Shown here in pieces: positions 19,087 through 43,803 of a stretch of DNA of 43,803 bases (positions within the stretch are counted from its first letter, which is position 1; each line of letters opens with the position of its first letter). Source of the DNA: an uncultured Candidatus Saccharibacteria bacterium. Its GTDB lineage: Bacteria; Patescibacteriota; Saccharimonadia; Saccharimonadales; SZUA-47. The position numbers and the translations under genes were made by a program. The stretch covers positions 1 through 43,803 of the forward strand of contig CAZHXX010000009.1 in assembly GCA_964536485.1 (NCBI GenBank), in the 5' to 3' direction. Under the pieces are notes generated by a model. It did no database searches. It was not told the origin of the DNA and saw nothing but the letters and a program-made list of their open reading frames with translations.

Positions 19087-19371
19087 ATGAGATTGGTGGC
19101 CTTATACCGTACAAATAGCGAACAAGCACGTCCAATGTATGAATTTATAGAAATGTTTAGGCGTCGCTACCCTGATAAAGTTATCCAAGAATTAGATTTA
19201 GACACAAGAGAGGGCGCTGCAGAAGCAAGTCTTTACGGAATTATGAATTATCCAGCGCTCATTGCAACTGGGTTTGATGGACGAGTTTTAGGCCTCTGGG
19301 AAGGGCTTCCTCTTCCGCTCATAGACGAGGTTGCAGGCTCGGTCGTTGAAATACAAGCCACACCAGTGTAA
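19087..19371 (+). CDS. thioredoxin-fold-like protein lacking the CxxC motif
   Basis: 94 aa with no Cys. The beta-alpha-beta start (LVALY) and a cis-Pro-like NYPALI...G loop resemble a Trx fold. No Shine-Dalgarno. Confidence 0.4.
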   Translation: MRLVALYRTNSEQARPMYEFIEMFRRRYPDKVIQELDLDTREGAAEASLYGIMNYPALIATGFDGRVLGLWEGLPLPLIDEVAGSVVEIQATPV

Positions 19372-22884: not shown

Positions 22885-22906
22885 ACAGTAAAATTACTAA
22901 AAAATT

Positions 22907-22940
22907 AAAAATGCGTCCTCAAGGTGAGGGCGCATTTTTA
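22907..22940 (+). terminator. intrinsic terminator after rplU
   Basis: aaaaatgcgtcctc-aaggt-gagggcgcattttt: a 9-bp GC-rich stem plus T5. Confidence 0.7.
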
Positions 22941-22976
22941 ATTGTGGAAAACTAGTAATTTTTAAGCATTATCTTG

Positions 22977-23006
22977 TTGATATGCTGAACACATTTGTTG
23001 TACACT
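22977..23006 (+). promoter_or_regulatory. candidate promoter of the giant ORF (TTGATA-18-TACACT)
   Basis: TTGATA 22977-22982, 18-nt spacer, TACACT 23001-23006, about 100 nt upstream of ATG 23106. Confidence 0.35.
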
Positions 23007-23078
23007 AATGAAGTCTAAGGTGTAAAAAGCACCAAAGACGGGCGCAGTGTCGGAAAATCTCGCAGTTTTCTGACTTCT

Positions 23079-23105
23079 GTGTTGCTATAAAAAAATAAGC
23101 AACAC
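23079..23105 (+). promoter_or_regulatory. hairpin abutting the annotated ATG of the giant ORF
   Basis: gtgttgct / agcaacac 8-bp stem with an 11-nt A-rich loop, ending 1 nt before ATG 23106. No Shine-Dalgarno is present. Confidence 0.5.
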
Positions 23106-26100
23106 ATGAAAAATAAATTTACAAAAAAACACAAACACGTACTTATTATTAATGGTACGCAAGGGATGGCTATGCTATCCCTTGCTGTCATTTCTGGGAT
23201 TTGTAAGTATTTAAAGAGCTCAGCACCATGCGCCCGGTTGCTGAGCTCTTTTGATACTTACAAGAATTTTACGAACCAGTCTAGTGCCGACTCAGCCTCA
23301 TGCGCCCGAGCGCTGAGTCGGCTTTGGACTGGTTTTTCAGCACGTATAAGACATCGTGCAAGCTCAATCTCATGCGCCCGAGCATTGAGCTTGCTTGGTG
23401 TCTTATTAATGAGCGCATCATTATTTATCGGTACGGTCCAGCTTGGTAACGAGCAAGTCTCCGCCGCCACCTCCAACACCCTCAACTTCCAAGGACGTCT
23501 CCTTACCTCAACAGGTGGCTTAGTACCAGACGGTACCTATAACGTTCAGTTCAATCTCTACTACGTCAGTTCTGGTGGTTCTAGTCTCTGGACAGAAACA
23601 AGAACCAACCAAGGTGGTACTCCAGTTACTATCCAAAATGGTTACTACTCTGTCTATCTTGGTGAAGTGACTACCTTCCCAACAAACATTGACTGGTCAG
23701 AAGATCTCTACCTAGGTATGACAGTACGTGGCACTGGTTCATGTGCCTTTGGTTCTTGTACGCCAGCAGATTCAGAAATGACTCCTCGCTTTAAACTCAC
23801 TGCAGTGCCATATGCTCTCCGTGCATCAAACGTTGCATCAAGTAGCACTAATGCGGCTTCAACTAACTCAGATGGTATTAGTATCACCACAGGAAATGCT
23901 CTTGGAGCTACCAGCAACTCAGGCAGTATCACTATCGATGTGGGGAGTGCTACAGGAACAGCAGGAGGGATAAGTTTGGGTGCTGGCACAAATGCGCCAA
24001 GCTCGATTCTCATAGGGCAGTCAGGCGTAACCACTACGGTCCAGGGGTCTTTGGCTGTCACCGGTGCGGGAACGGCCTTATCGGTGACAAATGATGCGAC
24101 AATAGGCGGAACCCTAGGCGTTACGGGGCTTATTACCGCAAGTGGCGGTCTAACGGTAACAAATGGAGATACACTAACAAACGCCGGTGCGACGCTTAAC
24201 ACAGCAGTTGCAATAAGTAATGTTGCTGGTGGTGGTGCTATTGGCACGGCGGCCGCTACAGTAAACAGCGCAACAACATTTAACGTTAATCAAACAACCG
24301 CTTCTCAAACACTAACGCTTCCAGCGCCTACCACTACTACTGCAGGCCGAATTGTCTACGTCAACAACGTAGGTAGCGCAAGCTTTACTATGTATGGAAG
24401 TGTGATCGCATCTGGCGCAAGCAACGCGTTTATCTGGAACGGATCTTCTTGGGTTACAACAGTTTCTCTAAGCGGAAGTGTCGTGAATGTTGTCGGTACA
24501 CTAGATAGCCAGACAAAGAGTGCCGATGGTGCAGTTATCGCAAGCAATGCAATCTACCTCCAGTCAGCAGATGCAACATACCCAGGACTTGTTAGTACCG
24601 GCTCTCAGACCTTCGCAGGTGCAAAGACATTCGGTAGCACTTTGGCTGTATCCGGAACCTTAACAGCAAATACAAATCTCACAGTTGGGACCGGTGCAGG
24701 GGTTGGGCTCTTTACAAATAATGGTGCGACAGTAAACACAACTCTAGCCCTTGGCAACTTTACCGGCGGTACATCTAGTATTGGTACTGCAGCAACAACG
24801 GTTGACATATACACGAGCATTAGCATAAATCAGAATAGTAATAACCAAACTCTTACAATACCTACTCCTACAGCAAGTTCAACTTATGGAAGAATCCTTT
24901 ATCTATCTAATGTCGGAAGCGCAAGCTTCACTCTTGGTACAACACTTGTTAACCCTGGTACGACAGCGACCCTTATATGGAGCAATACGAGCAGTGGTGA
25001 CAGCTGGCAGTTTGCTGGTGCCGATGCAAATGGTATCATCAACCAAAATGCTTCTGCGCAGACAGCGAACTTCTATATTAGTGGTAGTGGACGTGCAAGC
25101 ACTAGTTTCCTAGCCCCAAGTTTTGACACGGCAACAGCAGCGACACTTAACATTGGGCAGACAAACGCTACAGCTATAGCACTTAACAAAGACACGAGTG
25201 TGACAGGTAATTTAAGTGTTACAAGTACTGGTGCAAATACCTACTCTCTAGCAAATACGGGAACACTTACAGTTAGCTCAAACTTAACTGCAGGTGCGCG
25301 AGCAGCTTACCTTATGACCTTATCTCAAGCCAACGATGCAACAAATAATAACAGTTCAGGACTACTGCAACTAAACAACTCAGATACTGCCTCCACCGCA
25401 GCCGTACTTAACATCACGCAGGCTGCAACCGCGGGAACAGGTATCAGCTTTACGTCTTTGACGGGTGGCAACAGCATCACTTTGGCAACCACAACAGGTA
25501 CTGGACTTAACGCTAATACTGTTACTACAGGTTCGGCGCTTAGCGCAACAGCTTTAACATCTGGAGCTGCGGTTATTGCGGCAATTCCAAACGGCGCCAC
25601 GACGGCATCTGCGTTACGCGTAACGACTGCCGCCACTGCGATTAGTGCTGACTACACAGGAAATATTATAGATATATCACCAACTCGCACCATGACTGCC
25701 GCCGCAACACGAAACGAGTCGGGTCGCTATGTTAACATCGCTCGAAGTTCTGTCACTAATGGTGCGTCATCTATCTACAACATTACTGGTGACCTTGTTA
25801 ATTTCCAGTCAACTTGTACCCAGACACAAGGTACTTGTACGGATAGCTCCAGTATTCTTAATCTCAGTCAGAATTATGCGACCGCTTCAGGTGCAGTATT
25901 AAAGGTCAATGGAGCAGGGACTGGCAACCTAGCAACGCTTGATGCAACAAATTCATCCGCAAACGGTCTCTCGATAGACGTCCAATCATCCAGCTCTAGC
26001 CAATTTGCATTTAAAGTGACAACAGGCAACAATACGACGACAGCATTTCAAGTTACAGGGGATGCAAACGCTACTTTCGGTGGTAACCTGAGCTTTGCAG

Positions 26101-29100
26101 AAGGTGCTTCGCGTGCAGTAAGCGTTGCAACACGTAGCACTAACAGTGCCGGGAACGATTTGTCTATAACTGCCGGTGCTGCTGGTAGTGGAGCATCAGC
26201 ATTCAGTGGAGGTAATCTCTTGTTGCAAGGTGGTGTCGCTGCTGGTACGGGGAATGCAAACGGTGGTAACGTTACACTTAGAGGTGGTAACGGTACAGGA
26301 ACGGGTGTACCGGGCATTGTTGAAATTGACACCCCTGTTTATACTGCAGCCTCTACGCAAACTTTTGCTGTAAACGGTACGATCTCTCAATCGGTAGTTG
26401 ATGGCAATAGTACAATCCCTGTTAATGCAACCGCAGGGAGCCTTACTATCGCCCTTCCGTCTCCTGGCAACACCACGGTTGGTCGCATTATTTATGTAAC
26501 TGCAGTAAGTGGTTCAAATAACTTTACTATCTCTCCGTCTGGCGGAATATCCTTCATTATGGCCGCTAACTCTACTGCTACATTTGTGTGGAATGGTAGC
26601 GCTTGGACAAACGCAGGAGTTGACGGAGGAAGTGCAAGCTACATTCAGAACCAAAGTAGCTCCGATCAATCTGCCGACTTCCGTATTTCCGGAACAGGCC
26701 GTGCTAATACGAGTCTTACAACTCCACTCCTTGACAGTATCAGTGGTACCCTATCAGTGGGTACCTCGACAGCATCAGCTATTACGCTTGGTAAGTCTGG
26801 CATCACCACCACTAACGCAGGTGCATTCACTGTTAGCCAACTTCTGACCGCCAACCTTGGCGCCACCATCTCAGGAGCTACCACTAGCATCAACGCATCA
26901 AGTAACTTTACTACTAACATCAACACCGGTACTTCGACTGGTGCAGTAAACATTGGTAACTCACTTGCTGGTGCTATCGCTCTTCAGAGTGCATCAACTA
27001 TAACTACAACAACCGCAGACAACCTTGCTAATGCCTTTGACCTTCAAGAAGGCACCAACAACTACATCAACGTAAATACTACCAATAGCTCAGAGAACAT
27101 CAGCTTCGGTAATGCTACCACTAACCCAACATATAGCTTCTTAGGTAGTGGTACAGCGACCTTTACTGGGTTGGGTCAGTTTAACGGAAAGCTAGCAGTA
27201 AACACACTAACTACTGCAGATCCTCTTGCACAGGCAACCATCTCAACAGGGGCAACAACAAATAAGGGTCTAGTTATCCAAGCGGTTGCGAGTCAATCAG
27301 CAAATATTCTTGAAGTCCAGAGCAGTGTAGGTGGCAACTATGTTACCGTCTCGAGCCTTGGTACACTTGGGGCTACAAACCTCAACATCTTTAGCGGGAC
27401 TGGCAGCGGTGGTCTCTCTAAGAATTACAGTGTTGGTACTGGTGGCGTAACTCAGTATGACGTAGTTGTCATGGCAAATGATGGAGGCGCGTCAAAGGCA
27501 ATAACAACTACTACCGCTAGGGATACCCGAGTCTTTGGTGTCGCTTCTAGCACGACCGCCTCTGGCTCAACGGCCGCAATTTACATCAGCGGTAACTACC
27601 TGGTAACAGCCACGAGCGCGGCTGTAGCAATTGGTGATCAGCTTGTCACCTCTACGGTCGCTGGTCAGGTTATGACTGACAATGATGCAACAACAGGCAT
27701 TATTGGTATTGCTACAACCGCAAAAGGCGCAGGTGCAAGCGGACAAGTGGGAGTAAATATCCGCCCTGTAAACGGAGTGACTAATCCTAACTTCCAGGCC
27801 GGGAACTTAACTACAACAGGAACTATTACGAGCGGTCTTATTAACGGGCAAACTATTAGTTCAAGCGCTAACTTTACTGGTACGCTTACCACAGCTGGTC
27901 TTCTGACCGCCAACCTTGGCGCCACCATCTCAGGAGCTACCACTAGCATCAACGCATCAAGTAACTTTACTACTAACATCAACACCGGTACTTCGACTGG
28001 TGCAGTAAACATTGGTAACTCACTTGCTGGTGCTATCGCTCTTCAGAGTGCATCAACTATAACTACAACAACCGCAGACAACCTTGCTAATGCCTTTGAC
28101 CTTCAAGAAGGCACCAACAACTACATCAACGTAAATACTACCAATAGCTCAGAGAACATCAGCTTCGGTAATGCTACCACTAACCCAAGCTTTAACTTCC
28201 TTGGTTCTGGTACGCTTGCAGTTGCAGGCAACCAAACAGTTGGTGGCACACTTGACGTCACTGGTGTTGTTACTCTCACTGCTGACCTTACCGTCAACGG
28301 TAACACTGCTATTGGCAATGCTATCACTGACAACCTTACAGTCACTGCTGCTATCCAAGGTGCCTCAGCACTTGTCTTTGATGGTGCAACTAATGACACA
28401 AACGAAACAACCTTCGACATTACGGACCCAACAGCAGATCGAACCATTACTTTCCAGAACAACTCAGGCGTTGTTCCATTGAGCACTGCAGGCAACACTC
28501 TCTTCTTCACGACAACAGGTGCAACAGCACTCACTCTTCCAACCAGTGGTACCCTTACCGTTAATCCTGCATCTGGTGGTTACCTCATGCAAGTTCCTAC
28601 GACAACGGCAGACAACACTATTACTCCTACTGCTAACAGTGTTGTAGGGCTCACTGTCAACGGCACAAGTGGTACCGCTGCAACCGCAGTCAGTATTGTG
28701 CAGGGTGGGGCAGCGACAGCGTTGAATATCAACAGCACTAGCTCGGGGAGCATCCTTAACCTCCAGGATGGCGGCGTCTCAGTTCTTACCGTTGCTGACG
28801 GCGGTAATACTACAATTACTGCAAATGGTGGTACGAATGTCGCGCTCACGGTAAATAACGACGGTTCAACCGGCAACATCCTTAACCTCCAGGATGGCGG
28901 CGTCTCAGTTCTTACCGTTGCTGACGGCGGCAACGTAACTGTAGACACTACTACCTTATTTGTCGATGCCTCCTCAAACGAAGTCGGTATTGGAACGATC
29001 AACCCAGGAACTACCCTAGAAGTAGTCGGAAGCTTTTCAACAAGTGGCGCGGTGAGTGGAGCCGGCTCTGCAAACTATTTTGGTCAGACACTGAGCTCTA

Positions 29101-32100
29101 ACAATACATCCCAGACTGGCTTGAATAACCAGGTTGTATATAATCCTGGAGCCACTACTACTGGCGTCTTTGGTTTCAATAACATTGTCAGCCTCGACAG
29201 CAGTGCGATAAATGTCAATGCAACAGCAGGATACCTACGAGTAAGCACCGCAGCTGGCTATACTGGTACCGTTGGAACTGCAAAAGGTATCGAGATAGCT
29301 GCGCCAACTATCGCTGGAACGAACAAGTTTACGAACTACTATGGTATTCAGATTGCTAACCCAAGCGCTAACAGCGGTAACACATCAGGAACTCTTACAA
29401 ATATTGGCTTGCGAGTTGAATCTATTACGGCTGCAGGTGGGTCTGGGGGAACTGTTTCTAACAGAGGGATTTATCTTGCAGTTCCAGACGGCTCAGGCGC
29501 AGGAACAACTTCTAACCGTGGTTTGTATATTACCAGCGGTTCAGCAGGTGGCTCTAACTATGCTCTCTACAGCGATTCCGCAGCTCAAAGCTATATGGCC
29601 GGTAACTTTGGTCTAGGTGATACTTCACCAGCATCACTTCTCACTGTGGGAAGTGGCGAACTCTTCCAGGTTGCTTCTACTGGTGCTACGACAATAACTC
29701 CTACTGCAAACAGCACCGTAGCGCTTACAGTAAATGGTACATCAGGCACAGCAGCAACGGCACTTAGTGTTGTTCAGGCTGGCGCAGCTACCGCAGCTAC
29801 AATTAGCCAGAGTGCTGTAGCAGATGGCCTTGTTATTACTTCAACAAATGCAAGCCAAGTATCATCAACTGCTCTTAAAGTGACACAATCAGGAACAAGT
29901 ACAGGGTTTACTGGTAACTTCATAGACTTTACAGGGTCTTCTACGACTGGAGCAGGAAACCTTCTAAATCTTACGAGCGTAAACACCAGCGCAGGAAATG
30001 CCTTGAATGTTACTTCAAATTCACTTACAACAGGCAACGCAGTCAATATAAACAGCACCGGCACAGGTCTTACCACGGGGTCACTACTGCGAGTAAGCAC
30101 GGCAACTACTGGTGCGGTGGCAACAAATGGTGCAATTCAATTTAGCGCAACAGGTAACTACACAAGCACTTCAAATGTTGGCCTTCTCAGCGTGCAAGCA
30201 AACAGTACTACCGCTGGAACTATCCAAAATATTAACGGGAACGCACTTACTACAGGTGTAGGTCTCTACCTAGGTTCAACTAGCACGGGCATAACCTCTG
30301 GTTCACTTTTCTATGGCACGACGGCAACCACTGGTGCGGTGGCAACAAATGGTATCTTCTCTCTTAACGCAACAGGTAACTACACAAGTACTTCTAACGT
30401 CGGCCTGCTTAACGTAGCTGCTAACAGTACTGTCGCAGGTACCATCCAGAACATTACTGGTAACGCTCTCACTACGGGTAACGCTCTACGAGTTACCTCA
30501 ACTGGCACTGGTCTCACTTCTGGCTCGCTAATATTTGCAAGTTCCGCTACTACAGGCGCTGTCGCAACAAATGGCGCTATTAGCTTCCAGGCAAGTGGTA
30601 ACTATACAAGTACCTCAAATGTCGGTTTTGTAAGCATCCAAGCTAATTCAACCACGGCTGGTACAGTTCAAAACATTCAGGCTAACGCTCTCACTACAGG
30701 CCAGGCACTCTATGTGTCATCAACTGGCACTGGTCTCACTTCTGGCTCACTCGCATACTTTACCACCGCTACTACAGGCGCTGTCGCAACAAACGGTATC
30801 GTTTCGTTGAATGCAACAGGTAACTACACAAGCACTTCAAATGCGGGTCTTCTCAATGTCGCAGCAAACAGTACCACAGCAGGAACGGTGGCAAACATAT
30901 CTGGCACAGCACTTACTACCGGCACTGCCTTAAATATCACTGCAACCAGCCTCACAACAGGTGCAGCGCTTACATTAAACGCAGGTACGGCAACGGCACT
31001 TTCTTCGGGTGGAAACATTATCTTCCAAGAACTTACTGGTACTCGCACACTGGGCGTTCAGACCCGTACAGCGGCAGCTACAGCTGGAACAAACCTTACT
31101 GTACAGGCTGGCAGTGCATCTGCTACGGGTGTAGGATCAGCTGGTGGCGTACTTACTCTTCAGGGCGGTAGCGCGAATGGTGCAAGTGCAAGTGCAAATG
31201 GTGGAAACGTAGTAATTGCCGGTGGAACGGGGTATAGCACAGGTGTTAAAGGACTCATAGTAATGGATACAACCACATATAGTGCAGCTGCCGTGCAGAA
31301 CTTTACAGCTAATGCCTCCATCACTCAGGCAAATGTGGATACCTACGGCTCAATCTTAATTAGTGGGAATGCTGCAGGATGGGTAGCCACCTTACCAGAT
31401 CCAACGATCACAACTACCGGTCGTGTTATCTATATTACAAACTCAGGAAGTCTTGATATTACTCTCGCTGCGAATACAGTAGGTACGGCATTATCTATCA
31501 CACTAAAGCCTGCCTCAACAGCAACAATGTACTGGAACGGTTCAGATTGGACCGCAGCTGGTGCGTCAAGCTCTACGGACTTACAGGCAGCTTATAACAA
31601 CACCGCAACATCTGCAGGTGGTGCCGAAATAGTGCTATCTTCAACAGGTACCGGTGGCTTGACTATCCGTAACGATGGTACGACAGCAATCACCGGTGGA
31701 TTACTCGAAGTACAGACTTCTATAGGTTCTAACCTATTTACCGTCAATAACAACGCAGCCGAGTATGCAAACAATGGTGGTGCAGAAAGCTCCTCCTTCA
31801 CTATGTGGGCTGCGGCACCTGCCGGAGGTACCGTTAGTCGCTACACAACAGCTGGCGATAACATTGCTACTGGTGCAGGCTCCACATTTGTAGACACTAC
31901 ATCAACTGCAAACACCGGGGCAAAAAATACACTTTCAACTACTTTGACAGCAAATCTTAAGTATAAAGTTTCATATACAGTACGCCATACCTCAAGTACT
32001 GTAGCATTTACAACACTTGACACCATTTACTCTTCTGATGGAACTTCTACAACCGCAACCTGTGCAAGTGGAAGCACTGCTACGTACAGCACTTGGACGC

Positions 32101-33449
32101 GTATTGACTGTAGCTTTACAGCAACCAGCGTGGGTGCGTCTAACGCAATTATTATTCGCCATAGCGATGCTGTTGAGCACGACTTCTATATCGATAACCT
32201 CAGCGTCACTGTGAGCGCAGACGTTAACCATGCAGTCGATGGTGATGTAGACGTAGCACTTGGCACTAACTGGCAAGCGTATGATGCTGACGGTGGTACA
32301 GGTACCTCAGCAGTTGCTCGAGAAACGACAACTATTTACAACACCAGTGGATCTGTTGCTACGACCACAACTAGTGGATCGGGTGGTGCTGGCGAAGGTG
32401 TTCGAAACAATATGTCTATTACGCCATCAGTAAATACCCAGTACCTCGTTAGTTTCTACGCTAAGAGTTCAACAGCCTTTAGTGATATTACCGTTGGGTT
32501 CTTGCCGGCCGGTGGGTCAACGATCCCTTCGGCGGCACAAAGATGTACTGATTACAATACGCAAACCGTATCAACTTCTTCCTGGACAAAGATTACTTGT
32601 ATCATCCTTACCCCAGGCTCTGGTATATCTGATCCTGATCTTGTAATCTATCAAGGATCTGCAAGTGGTCGTGTATTCTACGTTGATGCTTTGTCTATCA
32701 CGCTAAACACCAACAACTCTTCCAACGTACAAGTAGGCGGTGGAAATAAGGGTGGGCCAACTACTTTGTTCACCCTTGACCGTTCTGCAGGAGCACCAAT
32801 CGCAGACAACAACAACGCATATCTTGGTTCAATGTACTTTGACACTACTACAGGGCGTATCCAGTGCTACGAAGCAGACGGCTGGGGAGCTTGTGGTGCT
32901 GCACCAGACAACATTGTTAACCTTAACCCTGAATACGCAGGTGCCGTTTTGAACGGTACTGGTGTTGGTACCATGACCGCGGACTTCTGCTCAAACGATA
33001 CAGCACTATCTGTTAATTCTACCCTATGTTCTACTGGTCAAGCCAAGAACTACTACAAGTGGACAAGCCCACAGGCAACCTCACAAACATATAGTATTTA
33101 CGTCACTTATCAGTTGCCGGCAACCTTTAACGGCTTTTCAAGTGACGATACAGTACAGCTTACCGCTCGCGTTGACAACACCTCTAACGCATCCGTAACT
33201 TACGAAATGTTTAAGAGTACGGGTTCAGCTGTAACACAATGTGGAAGCGGTGAAACAAACGTCATCACAGGCGGTGGCGGGTCTGCTAATACTTGGTACA
33301 CGTACGGAGTTAACGGAAATGAGGCAACTGGCTGTAGCTTCTCAAGCTCAAGCGCAAGTAACTTCGTTATCTTCAAGATAAATCTAAAGGCAAATTCAAA
33401 CGCCAATGCCTATGTTTCAACCCTAAGCTTCACAACAACTGGTAGATAA
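23106..33449 (+). CDS. giant (3447 aa) T/S/A/G/N-rich repeat fibre or adhesin-like surface protein; the start codon is uncertain
   Basis: Uninterrupted 10.3-kb ORF. Signal-peptide-like hydrophobic segment at about aa 95-112. Conserved N-terminal module from VSAATSNTLNFQGRL. Long low-charge beta-strand-like repeats. Two jelly-roll CBM-like modules and a Cys-containing C-terminal domain. Confidence 0.85.
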   Translation: MKNKFTKKHKHVLIINGTQGMAMLSLAVISGICKYLKSSAPCARLLSSFDTYKNFTNQSSADSASCARALSRLWTGFSARIRHRASSISCARALSLLGVLLMSASLFIGTVQLGNEQVSAATSNTLNFQGRLLTSTGGLVPDGTYNVQFNLYYVSSGGSSLWTETRTNQGGTPVTIQNGYYSVYLGEVTTFPTNIDWSEDLYLGMTVRGTGSCAFGSCTPADSEMTPRFKLTAVPYALRASNVASSSTNAASTNSDGISITTGNALGATSNSGSITIDVGSATGTAGGISLGAGTNAPSSILIGQSGVTTTVQGSLAVTGAGTALSVTNDATIGGTLGVTGLITASGGLTVTNGDTLTNAGATLNTAVAISNVAGGGAIGTAAATVNSATTFNVNQTTASQTLTLPAPTTTTAGRIVYVNNVGSASFTMYGSVIASGASNAFIWNGSSWVTTVSLSGSVVNVVGTLDSQTKSADGAVIASNAIYLQSADATYPGLVSTGSQTFAGAKTFGSTLAVSGTLTANTNLTVGTGAGVGLFTNNGATVNTTLALGNFTGGTSSIGTAATTVDIYTSISINQNSNNQTLTIPTPTASSTYGRILYLSNVGSASFTLGTTLVNPGTTATLIWSNTSSGDSWQFAGADANGIINQNASAQTANFYISGSGRASTSFLAPSFDTATAATLNIGQTNATAIALNKDTSVTGNLSVTSTGANTYSLANTGTLTVSSNLTAGARAAYLMTLSQANDATNNNSSGLLQLNNSDTASTAAVLNITQAATAGTGISFTSLTGGNSITLATTTGTGLNANTVTTGSALSATALTSGAAVIAAIPNGATTASALRVTTAATAISADYTGNIIDISPTRTMTAAATRNESGRYVNIARSSVTNGASSIYNITGDLVNFQSTCTQTQGTCTDSSSILNLSQNYATASGAVLKVNGAGTGNLATLDATNSSANGLSIDVQSSSSSQFAFKVTTGNNTTTAFQVTGDANATFGGNLSFAEGASRAVSVATRSTNSAGNDLSITAGAAGSGASAFSGGNLLLQGGVAAGTGNANGGNVTLRGGNGTGTGVPGIVEIDTPVYTAASTQTFAVNGTISQSVVDGNSTIPVNATAGSLTIALPSPGNTTVGRIIYVTAVSGSNNFTISPSGGISFIMAANSTATFVWNGSAWTNAGVDGGSASYIQNQSSSDQSADFRISGTGRANTSLTTPLLDSISGTLSVGTSTASAITLGKSGITTTNAGAFTVSQLLTANLGATISGATTSINASSNFTTNINTGTSTGAVNIGNSLAGAIALQSASTITTTTADNLANAFDLQEGTNNYINVNTTNSSENISFGNATTNPTYSFLGSGTATFTGLGQFNGKLAVNTLTTADPLAQATISTGATTNKGLVIQAVASQSANILEVQSSVGGNYVTVSSLGTLGATNLNIFSGTGSGGLSKNYSVGTGGVTQYDVVVMANDGGASKAITTTTARDTRVFGVASSTTASGSTAAIYISGNYLVTATSAAVAIGDQLVTSTVAGQVMTDNDATTGIIGIATTAKGAGASGQVGVNIRPVNGVTNPNFQAGNLTTTGTITSGLINGQTISSSANFTGTLTTAGLLTANLGATISGATTSINASSNFTTNINTGTSTGAVNIGNSLAGAIALQSASTITTTTADNLANAFDLQEGTNNYINVNTTNSSENISFGNATTNPSFNFLGSGTLAVAGNQTVGGTLDVTGVVTLTADLTVNGNTAIGNAITDNLTVTAAIQGASALVFDGATNDTNETTFDITDPTADRTITFQNNSGVVPLSTAGNTLFFTTTGATALTLPTSGTLTVNPASGGYLMQVPTTTADNTITPTANSVVGLTVNGTSGTAATAVSIVQGGAATALNINSTSSGSILNLQDGGVSVLTVADGGNTTITANGGTNVALTVNNDGSTGNILNLQDGGVSVLTVADGGNVTVDTTTLFVDASSNEVGIGTINPGTTLEVVGSFSTSGAVSGAGSANYFGQTLSSNNTSQTGLNNQVVYNPGATTTGVFGFNNIVSLDSSAINVNATAGYLRVSTAAGYTGTVGTAKGIEIAAPTIAGTNKFTNYYGIQIANPSANSGNTSGTLTNIGLRVESITAAGGSGGTVSNRGIYLAVPDGSGAGTTSNRGLYITSGSAGGSNYALYSDSAAQSYMAGNFGLGDTSPASLLTVGSGELFQVASTGATTITPTANSTVALTVNGTSGTAATALSVVQAGAATAATISQSAVADGLVITSTNASQVSSTALKVTQSGTSTGFTGNFIDFTGSSTTGAGNLLNLTSVNTSAGNALNVTSNSLTTGNAVNINSTGTGLTTGSLLRVSTATTGAVATNGAIQFSATGNYTSTSNVGLLSVQANSTTAGTIQNINGNALTTGVGLYLGSTSTGITSGSLFYGTTATTGAVATNGIFSLNATGNYTSTSNVGLLNVAANSTVAGTIQNITGNALTTGNALRVTSTGTGLTSGSLIFASSATTGAVATNGAISFQASGNYTSTSNVGFVSIQANSTTAGTVQNIQANALTTGQALYVSSTGTGLTSGSLAYFTTATTGAVATNGIVSLNATGNYTSTSNAGLLNVAANSTTAGTVANISGTALTTGTALNITATSLTTGAALTLNAGTATALSSGGNIIFQELTGTRTLGVQTRTAAATAGTNLTVQAGSASATGVGSAGGVLTLQGGSANGASASANGGNVVIAGGTGYSTGVKGLIVMDTTTYSAAAVQNFTANASITQANVDTYGSILISGNAAGWVATLPDPTITTTGRVIYITNSGSLDITLAANTVGTALSITLKPASTATMYWNGSDWTAAGASSSTDLQAAYNNTATSAGGAEIVLSSTGTGGLTIRNDGTTAITGGLLEVQTSIGSNLFTVNNNAAEYANNGGAESSSFTMWAAAPAGGTVSRYTTAGDNIATGAGSTFVDTTSTANTGAKNTLSTTLTANLKYKVSYTVRHTSSTVAFTTLDTIYSSDGTSTTATCASGSTATYSTWTRIDCSFTATSVGASNAIIIRHSDAVEHDFYIDNLSVTVSADVNHAVDGDVDVALGTNWQAYDADGGTGTSAVARETTTIYNTSGSVATTTTSGSGGAGEGVRNNMSITPSVNTQYLVSFYAKSSTAFSDITVGFLPAGGSTIPSAAQRCTDYNTQTVSTSSWTKITCIILTPGSGISDPDLVIYQGSASGRVFYVDALSITLNTNNSSNVQVGGGNKGGPTTLFTLDRSAGAPIADNNNAYLGSMYFDTTTGRIQCYEADGWGACGAAPDNIVNLNPEYAGAVLNGTGVGTMTADFCSNDTALSVNSTLCSTGQAKNYYKWTSPQATSQTYSIYVTYQLPATFNGFSSDDTVQLTARVDNTSNASVTYEMFKSTGSAVTQCGSGETNVITGGGGSANTWYTYGVNGNEATGCSFSSSSASNFVIFKINLKANSNANAYVSTLSFTTTGR
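23214..23394 (+). repeat. three stem-loops at exact 72-nt spacing with covarying stems and an invariant ATGCGCCC loop
   Basis: Hairpins at 23214-23250, 23286-23322 and 23358-23394. The motif catgcgcccg occurs at 23227, 23299 and 23371. Stem arms differ between copies but remain complementary. Confidence 0.8.
23457..23982 (+). repeat. N-terminal fibre module shared with the paralog at 42387-42912
   Basis: Co-linear DNA similarity. The first ~260 bp have scattered, mostly third-position differences. 23715-23982 differs from 42645-42912 at one position. Confidence 0.9.
26841..27129 (+). repeat. 289-bp perfect intragenic direct repeat, copy 1
   Basis: Base-for-base identical to 27900-28188. The offset is 1059 bp, which is 353 codons and therefore in frame. 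Confidence 0.95.
27900..28188 (+). repeat. 289-bp perfect intragenic direct repeat, copy 2
   Basis: Identical to 26841-27129. Confidence 0.95.
28751..28930 (+). repeat. 54-bp perfect direct repeat pair, 126 bp apart
   Basis: 28751-28804 equals 28877-28930 and encodes ILNLQDGGVSVLTVADGG. Confidence 0.9.
30102..30989 (+). repeat. about four tandem 222-bp (74-aa) coding repeats
   Basis: Units begin at 30102, 30324, 30546 and 30768 (ATTGAVATNG...GNYTSTSNVGLL..ANST.AGT..NI.GNALTTG...STGTGLTSGSL). Confidence 0.85.
31800..32706 (+). other. two tandem jelly-roll carbohydrate-binding-module-like domains (CBM4/9 or CenC-like) within the giant ORF
   Basis: Each module ends in the characteristic hydrophobic-D-aliphatic strand (FYIDNLSVTV at about 32185-32212, FYVDALSITL at about 32680-32706) and has the W-containing ..W.(R/K)I.C.(F/I) strand. 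Confidence 0.45.
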
Positions 33450-42155: not shown

Positions 42156-43803
42156 ATGAAAATAAAAACAGGTAAAAAAATGCTACAAACGGGAAGGGAC
42201 GCCCGAAAAGAGCGATCCAGATATGCAACAGCGTATACCTCCACTCATTGCAGTGGAGCTCTGTACGCTGTTTTTCGTTTGTTCAAATTAGATAAAAGTG
42301 CACTGTTCTGCAAAGGGGTCGTGCTCGCATTGCTCTCTTTGCTCGTCCCGTTCAGTGTGCTTTTATCTAGTTTGAACGTACGTCTTGTCTCCGCCGCCAC
42401 CTCCAACACCCTCAACTTCCAAGGGCGTCTCCTTACCTCAACCGGTGGCTTAGTACCAGACGGTACCTACAACGTACAGTTCAATCTCTACTATGTAAGC
42501 TCAGGTGGTTCTAGCCAATGGACAGAAACAAGAACTAATCAGGGCGGTACTCCTGTTACTATCCAAAATGGTTACTACTCTGTCTATCTTGGAGAGGTCA
42601 CTGCCTTCCCATCAAACATAGACTGGTCAGAAGATCTCTATCTTGGTATGACAGTACGTGGCACTGGTTCATGTGCCTTCGGTTCTTGTACGCCAGCAGA
42701 TTCAGAAATGACTCCTCGCTTTAAACTCACTGCAGTGCCATATGCTCTCCGTGCATCAAACGTTGCATCAAGTAGCACTAATGCGGCTTCAACTAACTCA
42801 GATGGTATTAGTATCACCACAGGAAATGCTCTTGGAGCTACCAGCAACTCAGGCAGTATCACTATCGATGTGGGGAGTGCTACAGGAACAGCAGGAGGGA
42901 TAAGTTTGGGTGGAGCAAATGCTTCGTCGATAACCCTTGGAAGTGGAAGCGGAACTTTTGTACTTCAAACAAGTAACATAGACATATCCTCAGCTGGAGT
43001 TATAAGTGGCGCTACAGGAATAACGAGCTCAGGAACAATAACCTTTAGTGGTCTTAACTGTACGGGTAATGCCAATGGAGGTGCACTTACCGCTAACGCT
43101 TTCGGTGTTATTAGCTGTAGCGACGATGACAGTGGAAGTGGCGGAAGTTCTCTTTTCACTGATTCTGGTACATTTACTTACTTAACGGCAACTTCGGACG
43201 ATCTTGTTATTGGGGACTCAACCGTTGCTGGCGCAAGTCTATTTGTCGATGAATCTGCTGGTTCGACTACTTTCGGTAATACCTCACTGGCAGGCTCACT
43301 ACTTATCGCTGACGGAAGCTCGAACTTTGGCACTATAGTAACTACTTCGCTTTCGTCTGACAGAACATATACATTGCCAGATGCAACCGGAACAATATGT
43401 TTGAGCAGTGGTAACTGTGTCGGCTCAGGTGGGGCAGGTGACATATTAAACAACGGCCAAAACGGCACAGTACGCATTGGTTCAAACGATGCTAACTCAA
43501 CCATACTAGAAAGCAATAATATAGACAGATTGACTATCGACAGCTCTGGCAACAGCACATTTTCTGGCGCTATTACCGCAAATGCTGGCCTCAGCGTCGC
43601 TGCAGCTCAGACCATCACCATTGGTGGTGATGCCATCGATGAGTTTGTTGGTACAGGACTTACTCTCGTCTCTGGTGATCTCCAGACTACCCTGGGTACT
43701 AGTGTTGATCTTACCAGTGAAGTTACTGGCACCTTGCCAGCAAACGCTGGTGGCACTGGCCAAAGCACGACGACGGTTGGTGACCTCCTTGTTGGTGCAG
43801 CTG
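42156..43803 (+). CDS. fibre or adhesin paralog of the giant ORF, 3'-truncated by the window end
   Basis: The frame is open from ATG 42156 (alternative ATG at 42180) to the last base. It is absent from the supplied track, presumably because no stop is reached. Hydrophobic segment VVLALLSLLVPFSVLL, then the same VSAATSNTLNFQGRL module. It diverges after 42912 into a different T/S/G-rich repeat region. Confidence 0.8.
   Translation, partial: MKIKTGKKMLQTGRDARKERSRYATAYTSTHCSGALYAVFRLFKLDKSALFCKGVVLALLSLLVPFSVLLSSLNVRLVSAATSNTLNFQGRLLTSTGGLVPDGTYNVQFNLYYVSSGGSSQWTETRTNQGGTPVTIQNGYYSVYLGEVTAFPSNIDWSEDLYLGMTVRGTGSCAFGSCTPADSEMTPRFKLTAVPYALRASNVASSSTNAASTNSDGISITTGNALGATSNSGSITIDVGSATGTAGGISLGGANASSITLGSGSGTFVLQTSNIDISSAGVISGATGITSSGTITFSGLNCTGNANGGALTANAFGVISCSDDDSGSGGSSLFTDSGTFTYLTATSDDLVIGDSTVAGASLFVDESAGSTTFGNTSLAGSLLIADGSSNFGTIVTTSLSSDRTYTLPDATGTICLSSGNCVGSGGAGDILNNGQNGTVRIGSNDANSTILESNNIDRLTIDSSGNSTFSGAITANAGLSVAAAQTITIGGDAIDEFVGTGLTLVSGDLQTTLGTSVDLTSEVTGTLPANAGGTGQSTTTVGDLLVGAA
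42227..42276 (+). terminator. terminator-like hairpin plus T5 inside the 5' end of the paralog ORF
   Basis: Outer stem aacagcgta / tacgctgtt and inner stem ctccact / agtggag, followed by tttttcgtttgtt. Confidence 0.45.

Follow-up and report, generated by a model that had tools for sequence, protein, structure and literature searches.

The subject of this analysis is an array of three hairpins (A, B, and C) at the 5' end of a giant gene in a 43,803-nt stretch of DNA, here called the window, which is contig CAZHXX010000009.1 (assembly GCA_964536485.1) of an uncultured Candidatus Saccharibacteria bacterium. The gene is an open reading frame (ORF) of 3447 amino acids (aa) at 23106-33449 on the forward strand, and it is the largest gene of the 43.8-kb window. 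Comparison with related loci makes it very probable that the array belongs to a lineage-specific, cis-acting RNA structure, folded on the sense strand, in the mRNA of a giant secreted surface protein of Saccharibacteria; its role is probably to control or to protect this 10-kb message. An earlier note on the window had described three in-frame stem-loops 72 nt apart that share a loop and a CTCA/TGAG core. All of these sequence claims were verified, and the arms proved to be longer than noted.

The 8-nt loop ATGCGCCC begins at positions 23228, 23300, and 23372 of the window, in copies starting at 23214, 23286, and 23358, with a period of exactly 72 nt, and the CTCA/TGAG core is present in each copy. 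A repeat search returned a 27-nt core three times at the same spacing (23219, 23291, and 23363), and the copies are mutually 67-81% identical. The inverted-repeat arms are 25, 23, and 23 nt long (23201-23225/23239-23263, 23274-23296/23312-23334, and 23346-23368/23384-23406). The core pattern CTCA-N5-ATGCGCCC-N6-TGAG has three exact matches in the window; shuffled sequence gave a mean of 0.28 matches with three mismatches allowed, and none of 100 shuffles reached four. The 381-nt leader (23040-23420) folds at -177.8 kcal/mol, with z scores of -15.6 on the forward strand and -13.3 on the reverse strand. The hairpin array of the window is beyond chance.

Further copies, which the earlier note had proposed to look for, were found in many places outside the window. 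The pattern RCTCA-N4-CAYGCGCCCG-N5-TGAGY was applied to 185,579 species genomes, to metagenome contigs, and to a viral collection, the last of which gave no match. The genome scan returned 23 loci, comprising 15 Saccharibacteria or unclassified assemblies with the same leader and 8 single matches in unrelated phyla. These 8 were not accepted as family members, as a rough estimate gives about 9 chance matches and the covariance model scored them at 24 bits or less. The metagenome scan added 16 arrays, together with 18 single matches that failed a stem check and were likewise set aside. A relaxed scan of the loci brought the total to 92 distinct hairpins at 33 loci including the window, with one to five scored copies per locus and a weak sixth copy in L012. 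Each of the 15 array-bearing assemblies has a single locus, with one to five strict matches. The loop reads ACGCGCCC in 57 hairpins and ATGCGCCC in 35, never both within one array; loops were scored with up to one mismatch allowed, and all 92 still read AYGCGCCC.

The hairpins share one design, in which the 8-nt loop AYGCGCCC is closed by a C-G pair, a one-base pyrimidine bulge is present, and the lower stem is variable but paired. Stems measure 23-33 bp except in two truncated copies. Wherever a contig extends into the mature coding region, the array lies 5' of the same conserved domain. For example, a JGI metagenome contig with the orthologous locus 3' of rplU (L003) carries two hairpins 78 nt apart with the loop ACGCGCCC, and its differences from hairpin C of the window are compensatory (AAT/ATT to AGT/ACT and CTC/GAG to TCC/GGA). 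Two other loci (L001 and L002) come from the same strain and are identical in sequence, and they were set aside as uninformative. A covariance model built from an alignment of 54 hairpins, a search that the earlier note had recommended, matched only array members in 217 kb of loci (61-82 bits). With filters off it found only A, B, and C in the window (70-79 bits), the next match being the rplU terminator at 18.5 bits. The peptide of the leader extension, used as a protein query, gave five matches only, P0093 and P0097 among them.

The first hairpin of the arrays differs from the others. It has the core GCUCAGCUCC...GGAUGCUGAGC, and later copies share GCUCAACCUC...GAGCGUUGAGC. The first-hairpin core encodes SSAPCAR(M/L)LS or SSTPRARALS and has flanking A- and U-runs like those of a bidirectional intrinsic terminator; examples are L025 257-321, L014 6150-6214 (reverse strand), and L003 5698-5762.

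The arrays were taken from metagenome assemblies, and some contigs end inside an array; in L001, L002, L019, and L009 the contig ends within the array or just 3' of it. The deposited partial protein P0036 (KC960_02075) starts with MQAVNTT..., past the extension and array of the ORF in L010 (JAGQMY010000019.1). This start and the contigs that end at arrays indicate that annotation and assembly tend to lose the element. In L032 (3001-3462, protein P0093) a frameshift interrupts the array ORF after hairpin 2 and before hairpin 3; an assembly indel error is the likely cause, because ileS of that contig is likewise broken up into three ORFs. P0097, on a contig of 962 nt, joins an MKNKF leader and a first hairpin to a CdsA-like C-terminus and is probably a chimeric assembly.

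Covariation was evaluated on the 54 hairpins of the genome set in a gapless alignment of 65 columns with a 28-bp structure. The hairpins had been chosen by at least 10 of 13 inner pairs; the outer pairs were unselected, and they hold most of the covariation. Standard pairs occupied 89.4% of the cells, compared with 65.3% in shuffled alignments and 28-44% when partners were slid, and the covariation score was 0.716, compared with 0.243 and 0.10-0.17, respectively. None of 500 shuffles reached the observed value in either measure. Changes on both sides were seen in 26 of the 28 stem pairs. The closing C-G pair, loop positions 1 and 3-8, and most of CUCA/UGAG are invariant, and the lower 15-20 bp are free in sequence yet paired. 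The arrays show, across independent lineages, the compensatory covariation above both shuffled and slid controls by which a conserved structured RNA is recognized. The earlier suggestion that compensatory stem changes reflect selection on nucleic-acid structure is strongly supported by the 92 hairpins from 33 loci.

The pair types indicate which strand folds. Counted over 25 bp in each of the 92 hairpins, there were 1979 Watson-Crick pairs, 177 G.U pairs on the sense strand, 32 A.C pairs (equivalent to G.U on the antisense strand), and 112 others. A zone of imperfect pairing (U.U, G.U, U.G) recurs 15-18 bp from the loop. With three recurrent imperfect positions left out, there were 80 G.U and 28 A.C pairs. 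Because G.U exceeds A.C, a function of duplex DNA, a cruciform, or an antisense RNA is not expected. A fold selected on the sense-strand RNA is the simplest reading, sense-strand single-stranded DNA being the formal alternative.

The array is also coding sequence. Spacings between copies range from 63 to 153 nt, and all 65 are multiples of 3. In 16 loci, the 2271 codons between the start and the mature motif contain no in-frame stop, while the remaining two frames hold 178 and 135. Since the spacings are all multiples of 3 and the leaders lack in-frame stops, the array is, as judged by its reading frame, translated as an N-terminal extension that ends in a predicted signal peptide. The start codon, ATG or, in one clade, GTG, stands at the foot of hairpin P2 (Table 1) wherever the start motif was found, and the leader peptide begins with MKNKFTKKHKH (VK... 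in the GTG clade). No consistent internal start before the hydrophobic segment was found among the loci. In the window, hairpin C encodes the basic n-region RIRHR and the initial residues of the hydrophobic (h-) region of the signal peptide; therefore the codons preceding hairpin C make up an N-terminal extension in front of the signal peptide. The mature domain (LNFQGRLL...) begins after the putative cleavage site, and the homologues have a hydrophobic segment followed by a mature start of the form A-A-T-S-x-x-L-N-F-Q-G-R-L-L. The hydrophobic segment that the earlier note had placed after the hairpins does exist, but it is not wholly downstream of them (Table 1). That note had also pointed to the missing Shine-Dalgarno sequence before the ATG at 23106; the sequence is indeed absent, but this is not special, as about half of the window genes also lack one.

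Although the array is coding, the nucleotides rather than the peptide carry most of the constraint, with the peptide mostly a passenger. In the window, the units encode x-S-x-x-C-A-R-x-L-S every 24 aa (aa 38-47, 62-71, and 86-95). The loop codons UCA-YGC-GCC-CGA show no synonymous variation, and these codons have shares of 24%, 26%, 16%, and 20% in the genome. The single variable loop base exchanges Cys for Arg, and residues of the outer arms are unrelated between copies while pairing is retained. Compared with the close relatives L032 and L006, the 5' untranslated region (UTR) is 91-97% identical and the hairpins 89-100%, whereas the DNA coding for the h-region is 47-55% identical and one ungapped linker of 10 nt is 30% identical. 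The earlier note had considered that orthologues might keep the peptide and lose the stems; the reverse was found, as they keep the stems paired while the peptide drifts at the Cys/Arg position and in the outer arms. Some influence of the peptide remains at the imperfect zone, where the 5' arm holds an Arg codon that recurs and the 3' arm encodes a Leu/Phe-Gly pair. Three further explanations of the loop were rejected. Its AUG as an internal start would be out of frame and is missing in ACG-type loops. Ribosome pausing at rare codons is not expected, as the loop codons are non-preferred yet not rare. Editing of the TadA type requires UACG in a 7-nt loop, and the array loop has CACG or CAUG in 8 nt.

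The array is the last part of a chain of hairpins that makes up the 5' part of the mRNA, in the order P0, linker GGGCGCRG, P1, P2 at the start codon, P3a, P3, and the array (Table 1). From the promoter position, the transcription start is predicted near 23013, the first base of P0, which begins 7 nt past the predicted -10 box; the arrangement TTGAAA...TACACT is seen in most orthologous upstream regions. By eye, the position of P0 in orthologues is occupied by a hairpin of differing sequence (for example GGUG/CACC, GGAGU/ACUCC, and GUCUAC/GUAGAC). The two additional hairpins reported earlier, at the ATG and at 23159, are real and conserved.

Table 1. Features of the predicted leader and hairpin array of the giant gene (window positions)
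Feature	Position	Strand	Description
Predicted sigma-70-type promoter	22977-23006	+	TTGATA, 18-nt spacer, TACACT; consensus scan
P0 hairpin	23013-23039	+	Predicted transcript 5' end; -9.8 kcal/mol
Linker	23040-23047	+	GGGCGCAG, between P0 and P1; GGGCGC at 23040-23045
P1 hairpin	23049-23074	+	Conserved loop CUCGCAG; 5 pairs with double changes (RNAalifold)
P2 hairpin	23079-23105	+	-8.9 kcal/mol; 3' end adjoins start codon; kept in 16 loci
Start codon	23106-23108	+	ATG; first codon of giant ORF
P3a hairpin	23138-23159	+	Conserved; P3a and P3 lie within codons 11-27
P3 hairpin	23159-23185	+	Conserved; -19.7 kcal/mol
Hairpin A	23201-23263	+	Loop AUGCGCCC 23228-23235; -36.8 kcal/mol; 70.3 bits; encodes ...KYLKSSAPCARLLSSFDTYK
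Hairpin B	23274-23334	+	Loop 23300-23307; -43.1 kcal/mol; 76.1 bits
Hairpin C	23346-23406	+	Loop 23372-23379; -34.4 kcal/mol; 78.9 bits
Signal-peptide h-region	23382-23438	+	aa 93-111; hydropathy; 5' end overlapped by 3' arm of hairpin C
Putative signal-peptidase site	~23465/23466	+	VSA/ATSN; from motif position, cleavage inferred

The linker between P0 and P1 offers a partner for the loops. GGGCGC is invariant in all 29 loci whose sequence includes the 5' UTR (16/16 genome and 13/13 metagenome loci) and is fully complementary to GCGCCC, the invariant bases of the loop. In the consensus fold GGGCG is unpaired, and a weak helix of 4 bp, in which no double changes were seen, takes up the final C and the following AG. 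Linker and loop, extended by the flanking C and R, would form a duplex of 7-8 bp (-15.8 to -18.6 kcal/mol), and only 3 of 1000 shuffled loops bound the linker as well as the real loop did. The variable linker flank and loop position 2 were A and U in 13 loci, G and C in 11, A and C in 5, and G and U in none. The earlier note had pointed to another complement, GGGCGCAT at 22928-22935 in the rplU terminator. It is present, and with the three loops this reverse-strand copy makes up the four occurrences of ATGCGCCC in the window; it was rejected as the loop partner, since among the upstream regions examined it is found only in the window, and is read as a coincidence. The conserved complement of the loop is GGGCGC at 23040-23045, which takes its place. 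The terminator itself (22903-22943) has 19-nt arms that are 95% complementary and a U5 tail, and contains GGGCGCAU, the exact loop complement.

A mechanism for the array has to explain jointly a specific loop, long stems conserved only in pairing, abutting copies, obligatory translation, and restriction to one giant gene. We tentatively favor a model in which array loops dock on the 5' UTR linker and close a 5' domain that stabilizes or gates the giant mRNA. The loops would be sequence-specific docking sites for the mostly unpaired linker (C)GGGCGC(R), and a folded hairpin free of ribosomes would anchor the array at the 5' end of the mRNA. Together with the 5'-terminal hairpin P0, the closed domain might protect the 5' end and initiation region of the 10-kb message, which could not give a single full-length protein without a lifetime beyond that of an ordinary bacterial mRNA. 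Several abutting, stable, and fast-refolding hairpins could keep at least one loop folded while ribosomes pass, and through docking, initiation may come to respond to the occupancy of the leader by ribosomes. The complementarity and its conservation are direct observations; from them we infer the docking event and its effect on stability or initiation.

Several points weigh against docking. The transcription start is known as a prediction only. The covariation between UTR and loop amounts to about two to three clade-level events, and one clade of five loci has an A.C mismatch; because the states follow clades, this evidence is thin, and once phylogeny is considered the covariation is suggestive rather than significant. 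The complementarity was spotted after a search for one, and a specific 6-mer complement has a probability of a few per cent of arising by chance in the roughly 60 nt of leader that are conserved and unpaired. In duplex DNA, the UTR site is an inverted copy of YGCGCCC, and a DNA-binding factor would give the same covariation. A single linker cannot pair with several loops simultaneously. Finally, docking by itself leaves unexplained the conserved bulge, the U.U/G.U imperfection 15-18 bp from the loop, and the U-runs of the first hairpins. A more elaborate version, which we regard as doubtful, would make the array a translation-coupled mRNA device. In this version, a signal-peptide extension shaped first of all by RNA would hold self-refolding hairpins in the path of the ribosome, and loop docking would report occupancy to the 5' end and so set initiation rate, ribosome spacing, and decay. 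Docking, protein binding, attenuation, and the other models considered are not mutually exclusive.

The hairpins could instead be tandem sites for a loop- and bulge-specific RNA-binding protein that binds cooperatively and represses, localizes, or protects the giant mRNA, which we consider rather unlikely. The invariant loop, the conserved upper stem with its bulge, and the variable lower stems look like a protein site, tandem copies suit cooperative binding, and the single loop type (AU or AC) in each array is as expected for co-evolution with a single protein partner. However, such a site requires only about 10-15 bp, not 25-33 bp, the invariant loop complement in the 5' UTR would be left unexplained, and no candidate RNA-binding protein is visible near the locus, where the neighbors are ileS, rplU, and giant paralogues. 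It is less probable still that the array is a translation-gated attenuator, whose in-ORF hairpins, the first above all, would terminate transcription unless a ribosome closely trails the RNA polymerase. This would account for the open, in-frame array and for terminator-like first hairpins such as AAAAAGCUCAGCUCC-loop-GGAUGCUGAGCUUUUUU; T5 or longer follows the stem in 10 of 17 first hairpins but in 3 of 37 later ones, and in the window a U5 run (23335-23339) lies directly 3' of the stem of hairpin B. Most later hairpins, however, lack a U-tract and are equally conserved, hairpin A is followed by U4 only, and the U-runs may follow from Lys-rich 5' arms, in which AAA pairs with UUU. The invariance of the loop is irrelevant to intrinsic termination. 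None of A, B, and C was recognized as a whole hairpin by a terminator consensus scan, whose sole match in the array was a 7-bp sub-stem in C (23378-23398).

There is little probability that the hairpins are processing sites of the RNase III type that remove untranslated messages or mature the 5' end. Their stems of 23-33 bp, about two to three helical turns, are in the size class of the substrates, and the imperfect zone could position a cut. RNase III, however, needs no specific loop, cleavage within the ORF would destroy the message, and the imperfect zone may instead reflect peptide constraint at the Arg codon and Leu/Phe-Gly. A role at the DNA level is highly improbable, whether as single-strand or cruciform hairpins for recombination or phase variation, as sites of a DNA-binding protein, or as an in-frame mobile palindrome. 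The copy number (one to five scored copies) varies among genomes, the homogeneity of loops within an array fits gene conversion, the UTR site is an inverted loop motif, and G.T pairs stabilize hairpins of single-stranded DNA too. Against this, the excess of sense-strand G.U over A.C rules out a duplex or cruciform requirement, the stems covary between orthologues, and the outer stems are unrelated within an array, as is not the case for recent insertions or duplications. The cruciform or recombination role raised in the earlier note is unlikely with a structure selected in sense-strand RNA; its mobile palindromic repeat is contradicted by the single locus in each matching genome, the constant gene context where visible, the absence of covariance-model matches elsewhere in the 217 kb, and the empty viral scan. 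The least probable explanation by far is a peptide repeat, S-S-T-S-C/R-A-R-A-L-S..., with incidental hairpins. The reading frame is kept, each unit consists of a basic patch followed by a short hydrophobic patch, and a few mismatches fall at the recurring Arg and Leu/Phe-Gly. But selection on a peptide has no means of making 25-30 unrelated nucleotide pairs match each other in 92 copies, and the covariation counts contradict the explanation, as do the invariant synonymous sites of the loop, the tolerated radical replacement of Cys by Arg, and the outer-arm residues that are unconserved while paired.

The earlier note recognized no described RNA element, and our searches agree. Rfam release 15 gave no match to the whole window at gathering thresholds, and a permissive scan of 22900-23500 gave as best matches generic long-hairpin microRNA models with 17-25 bits, against thresholds of 84-211. 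ARAGORN found no tRNA or tmRNA gene in the window. A literature search on stem-loops and RNA motifs of Saccharibacteria, in-frame signal-peptide palindromes, S-layer mRNA leaders, and Rickettsia palindromic elements found no comparable description, and a paper on Gracilibacteria repeat genes (PMC6851277) has a different subject. Rickettsia palindromic elements (RPE), intragenic miniature inverted-repeat transposable elements (MITE), and elements like repetitive extragenic palindromes (REP) are similar to the array in that a palindrome lies in frame in a protein gene and is tolerated as peptide. However, RPE are dispersed in tens of copies among unrelated genes (review PMC10969869), whereas the array is tandem and confined to one gene per matching genome, and its orthologous copies covary under purifying selection. 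The dispersed copies typical of REP/BIME, MITE, and RPE were not seen, with one locus in each of the 15 matching assemblies and none elsewhere in the 217 kb; nor were near-identity or terminal repeats, as the outer stems are unrelated and no direct-repeat flanks were noticed. No transposase, integrase, or Y1 family was found among the scanned window ORFs (15447-41788). The resemblance to CRISPR, a partly palindromic repeat of 27-29 nt with a period of 63-96 nt, is superficial. Unlike in CRISPR, the copies are only 67-81% identical, the "spacers" are mutually complementary and pair across each repeat, the array lies inside an open ORF, and the window has no cas genes. Unlike in attC or IS200/IS605 hairpins, the center of the hairpin (loop and upper stem) is invariant and the foot variable.

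In its working, the array is closest to structured 5' mRNA stabilizers or attenuators and to repeated protein-binding hairpins, but it falls under the definition of none of them. The ompA leader of E. coli and S-layer mRNA leaders are 5'-terminal stem-loop stabilizers that are short and untranslated. The array is likewise accompanied by a hairpin where the transcript is predicted to begin, in a surface-protein mRNA that is long, probably abundant, and plausibly in need of slow decay, but its domain runs 300-600 nt into the ORF and is translated and repeated, with an invariant loop and a complementary UTR site. In the hok mRNA of plasmid R1, a long-range 5'-3' fold-back keeps the mRNA stable and inert, and kissing loops act in antisense control. 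The proposed docking is similar as a short, G+C-rich intramolecular pairing of a 5'-proximal single strand with a distant element; it differs in that the distant partner is any of several loops in the coding region, and no processing step or antisense RNA is known here. Early hairpins with U-runs, whose folding is decided by translation, recall the trp and his leader-peptide attenuators and intrinsic terminators. Unlike in those attenuators, there is no separate leader peptide, antiterminator pairing, or run of regulatory codons, and the leader is fused in frame; unlike intrinsic terminators, most array hairpins lack a U-tract and the loop is invariant. Protein-binding mRNA hairpins are known from eukaryotes and phages and include the iron-responsive elements of the transferrin receptor mRNA, the She2p sites of ASH1, boxB, and the MS2 operators. 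They share with the array a conserved loop and bulge, variable stems, and several copies, and the ASH1 hairpins also lie in coding sequence, but the stems of the array are much longer and no partner protein is known here. We class the array as a structured mRNA leader that acts in cis, with a real chance that it is instead something categorically new, a translated hairpin array that senses occupancy by ribosomes.

The giant ORF has one CBM_4_9 match, and its product is likely a host-contact or surface-layer protein. It is preceded by genes for NrdR, a class II ribonucleotide reductase, IleS, and RplU, and followed by a gene for a 2135-aa Kelch-repeat protein. A third large paralogue begins at 42181 (MLQTGRDAR...) and runs off the end of the window (43803) with a differently structured leader. 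In this leader, a 30-nt inverted repeat (42276-42305/42353-42382) encloses 47 nt that code for the h-region, and a second repeat (42186-42216/42329-42359) allows the first codons to pair with h-region coding sequence 112 nt downstream. The fold of the leader has a z score of -7.7, and four other loci (L004, L028, L030, and L031) retain the enclosing repeat with sequences of their own. In the more elaborate version of docking, the unrelated structured leader of this paralogue would suggest that these proteins generally rely on a folded region coding for the signal peptide. The start of the second giant gene (33514) shows no excess structure (z = 0.2), and therefore structured starts are not universal here. 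The first and third genes share about 95% identity over 500 nt of the DNA for the mature N-terminus (23457-23956 and 42388-42887), with all 200 bases matching in 23757-23956, after which identity falls to 40-60%. Their leaders show no relationship, and the pattern resembles a recent gene conversion between the two paralogues that stopped at the leader boundary. In L028 (4809-5504) and L029 (4875-5504), from another Saccharibacteria contig, a paralogous surface-protein gene is followed, some 0.6-0.7 kb downstream, by a gene for a Y1 transposase of the IS200/IS605 type, and no link of this gene to the hairpins was seen in these loci. In addition, a conserved ORF of 94 aa without a Pfam match (19087-19371) lies between the ribonucleotide reductase gene and ileS, in the same place in L001-L003.

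The array adds a candidate class of cis-regulatory RNA to Saccharibacteria, a phylum whose genomes are tiny, whose known regulators are very few, and of which little has been cultured. It is also a clean example of dual coding, as about 100-200 codons of a bacterial gene are set by RNA structure rather than by the protein; the evidence for this is unusually strong, with 92 copies, invariant loops, and covariation at almost all stem positions. For annotators it is a warning, as at least one deposited homologue (P0036) apparently starts past the extension. It also offers a testable idea of how bacteria may keep 10-kb mRNAs alive and evenly loaded with ribosomes.

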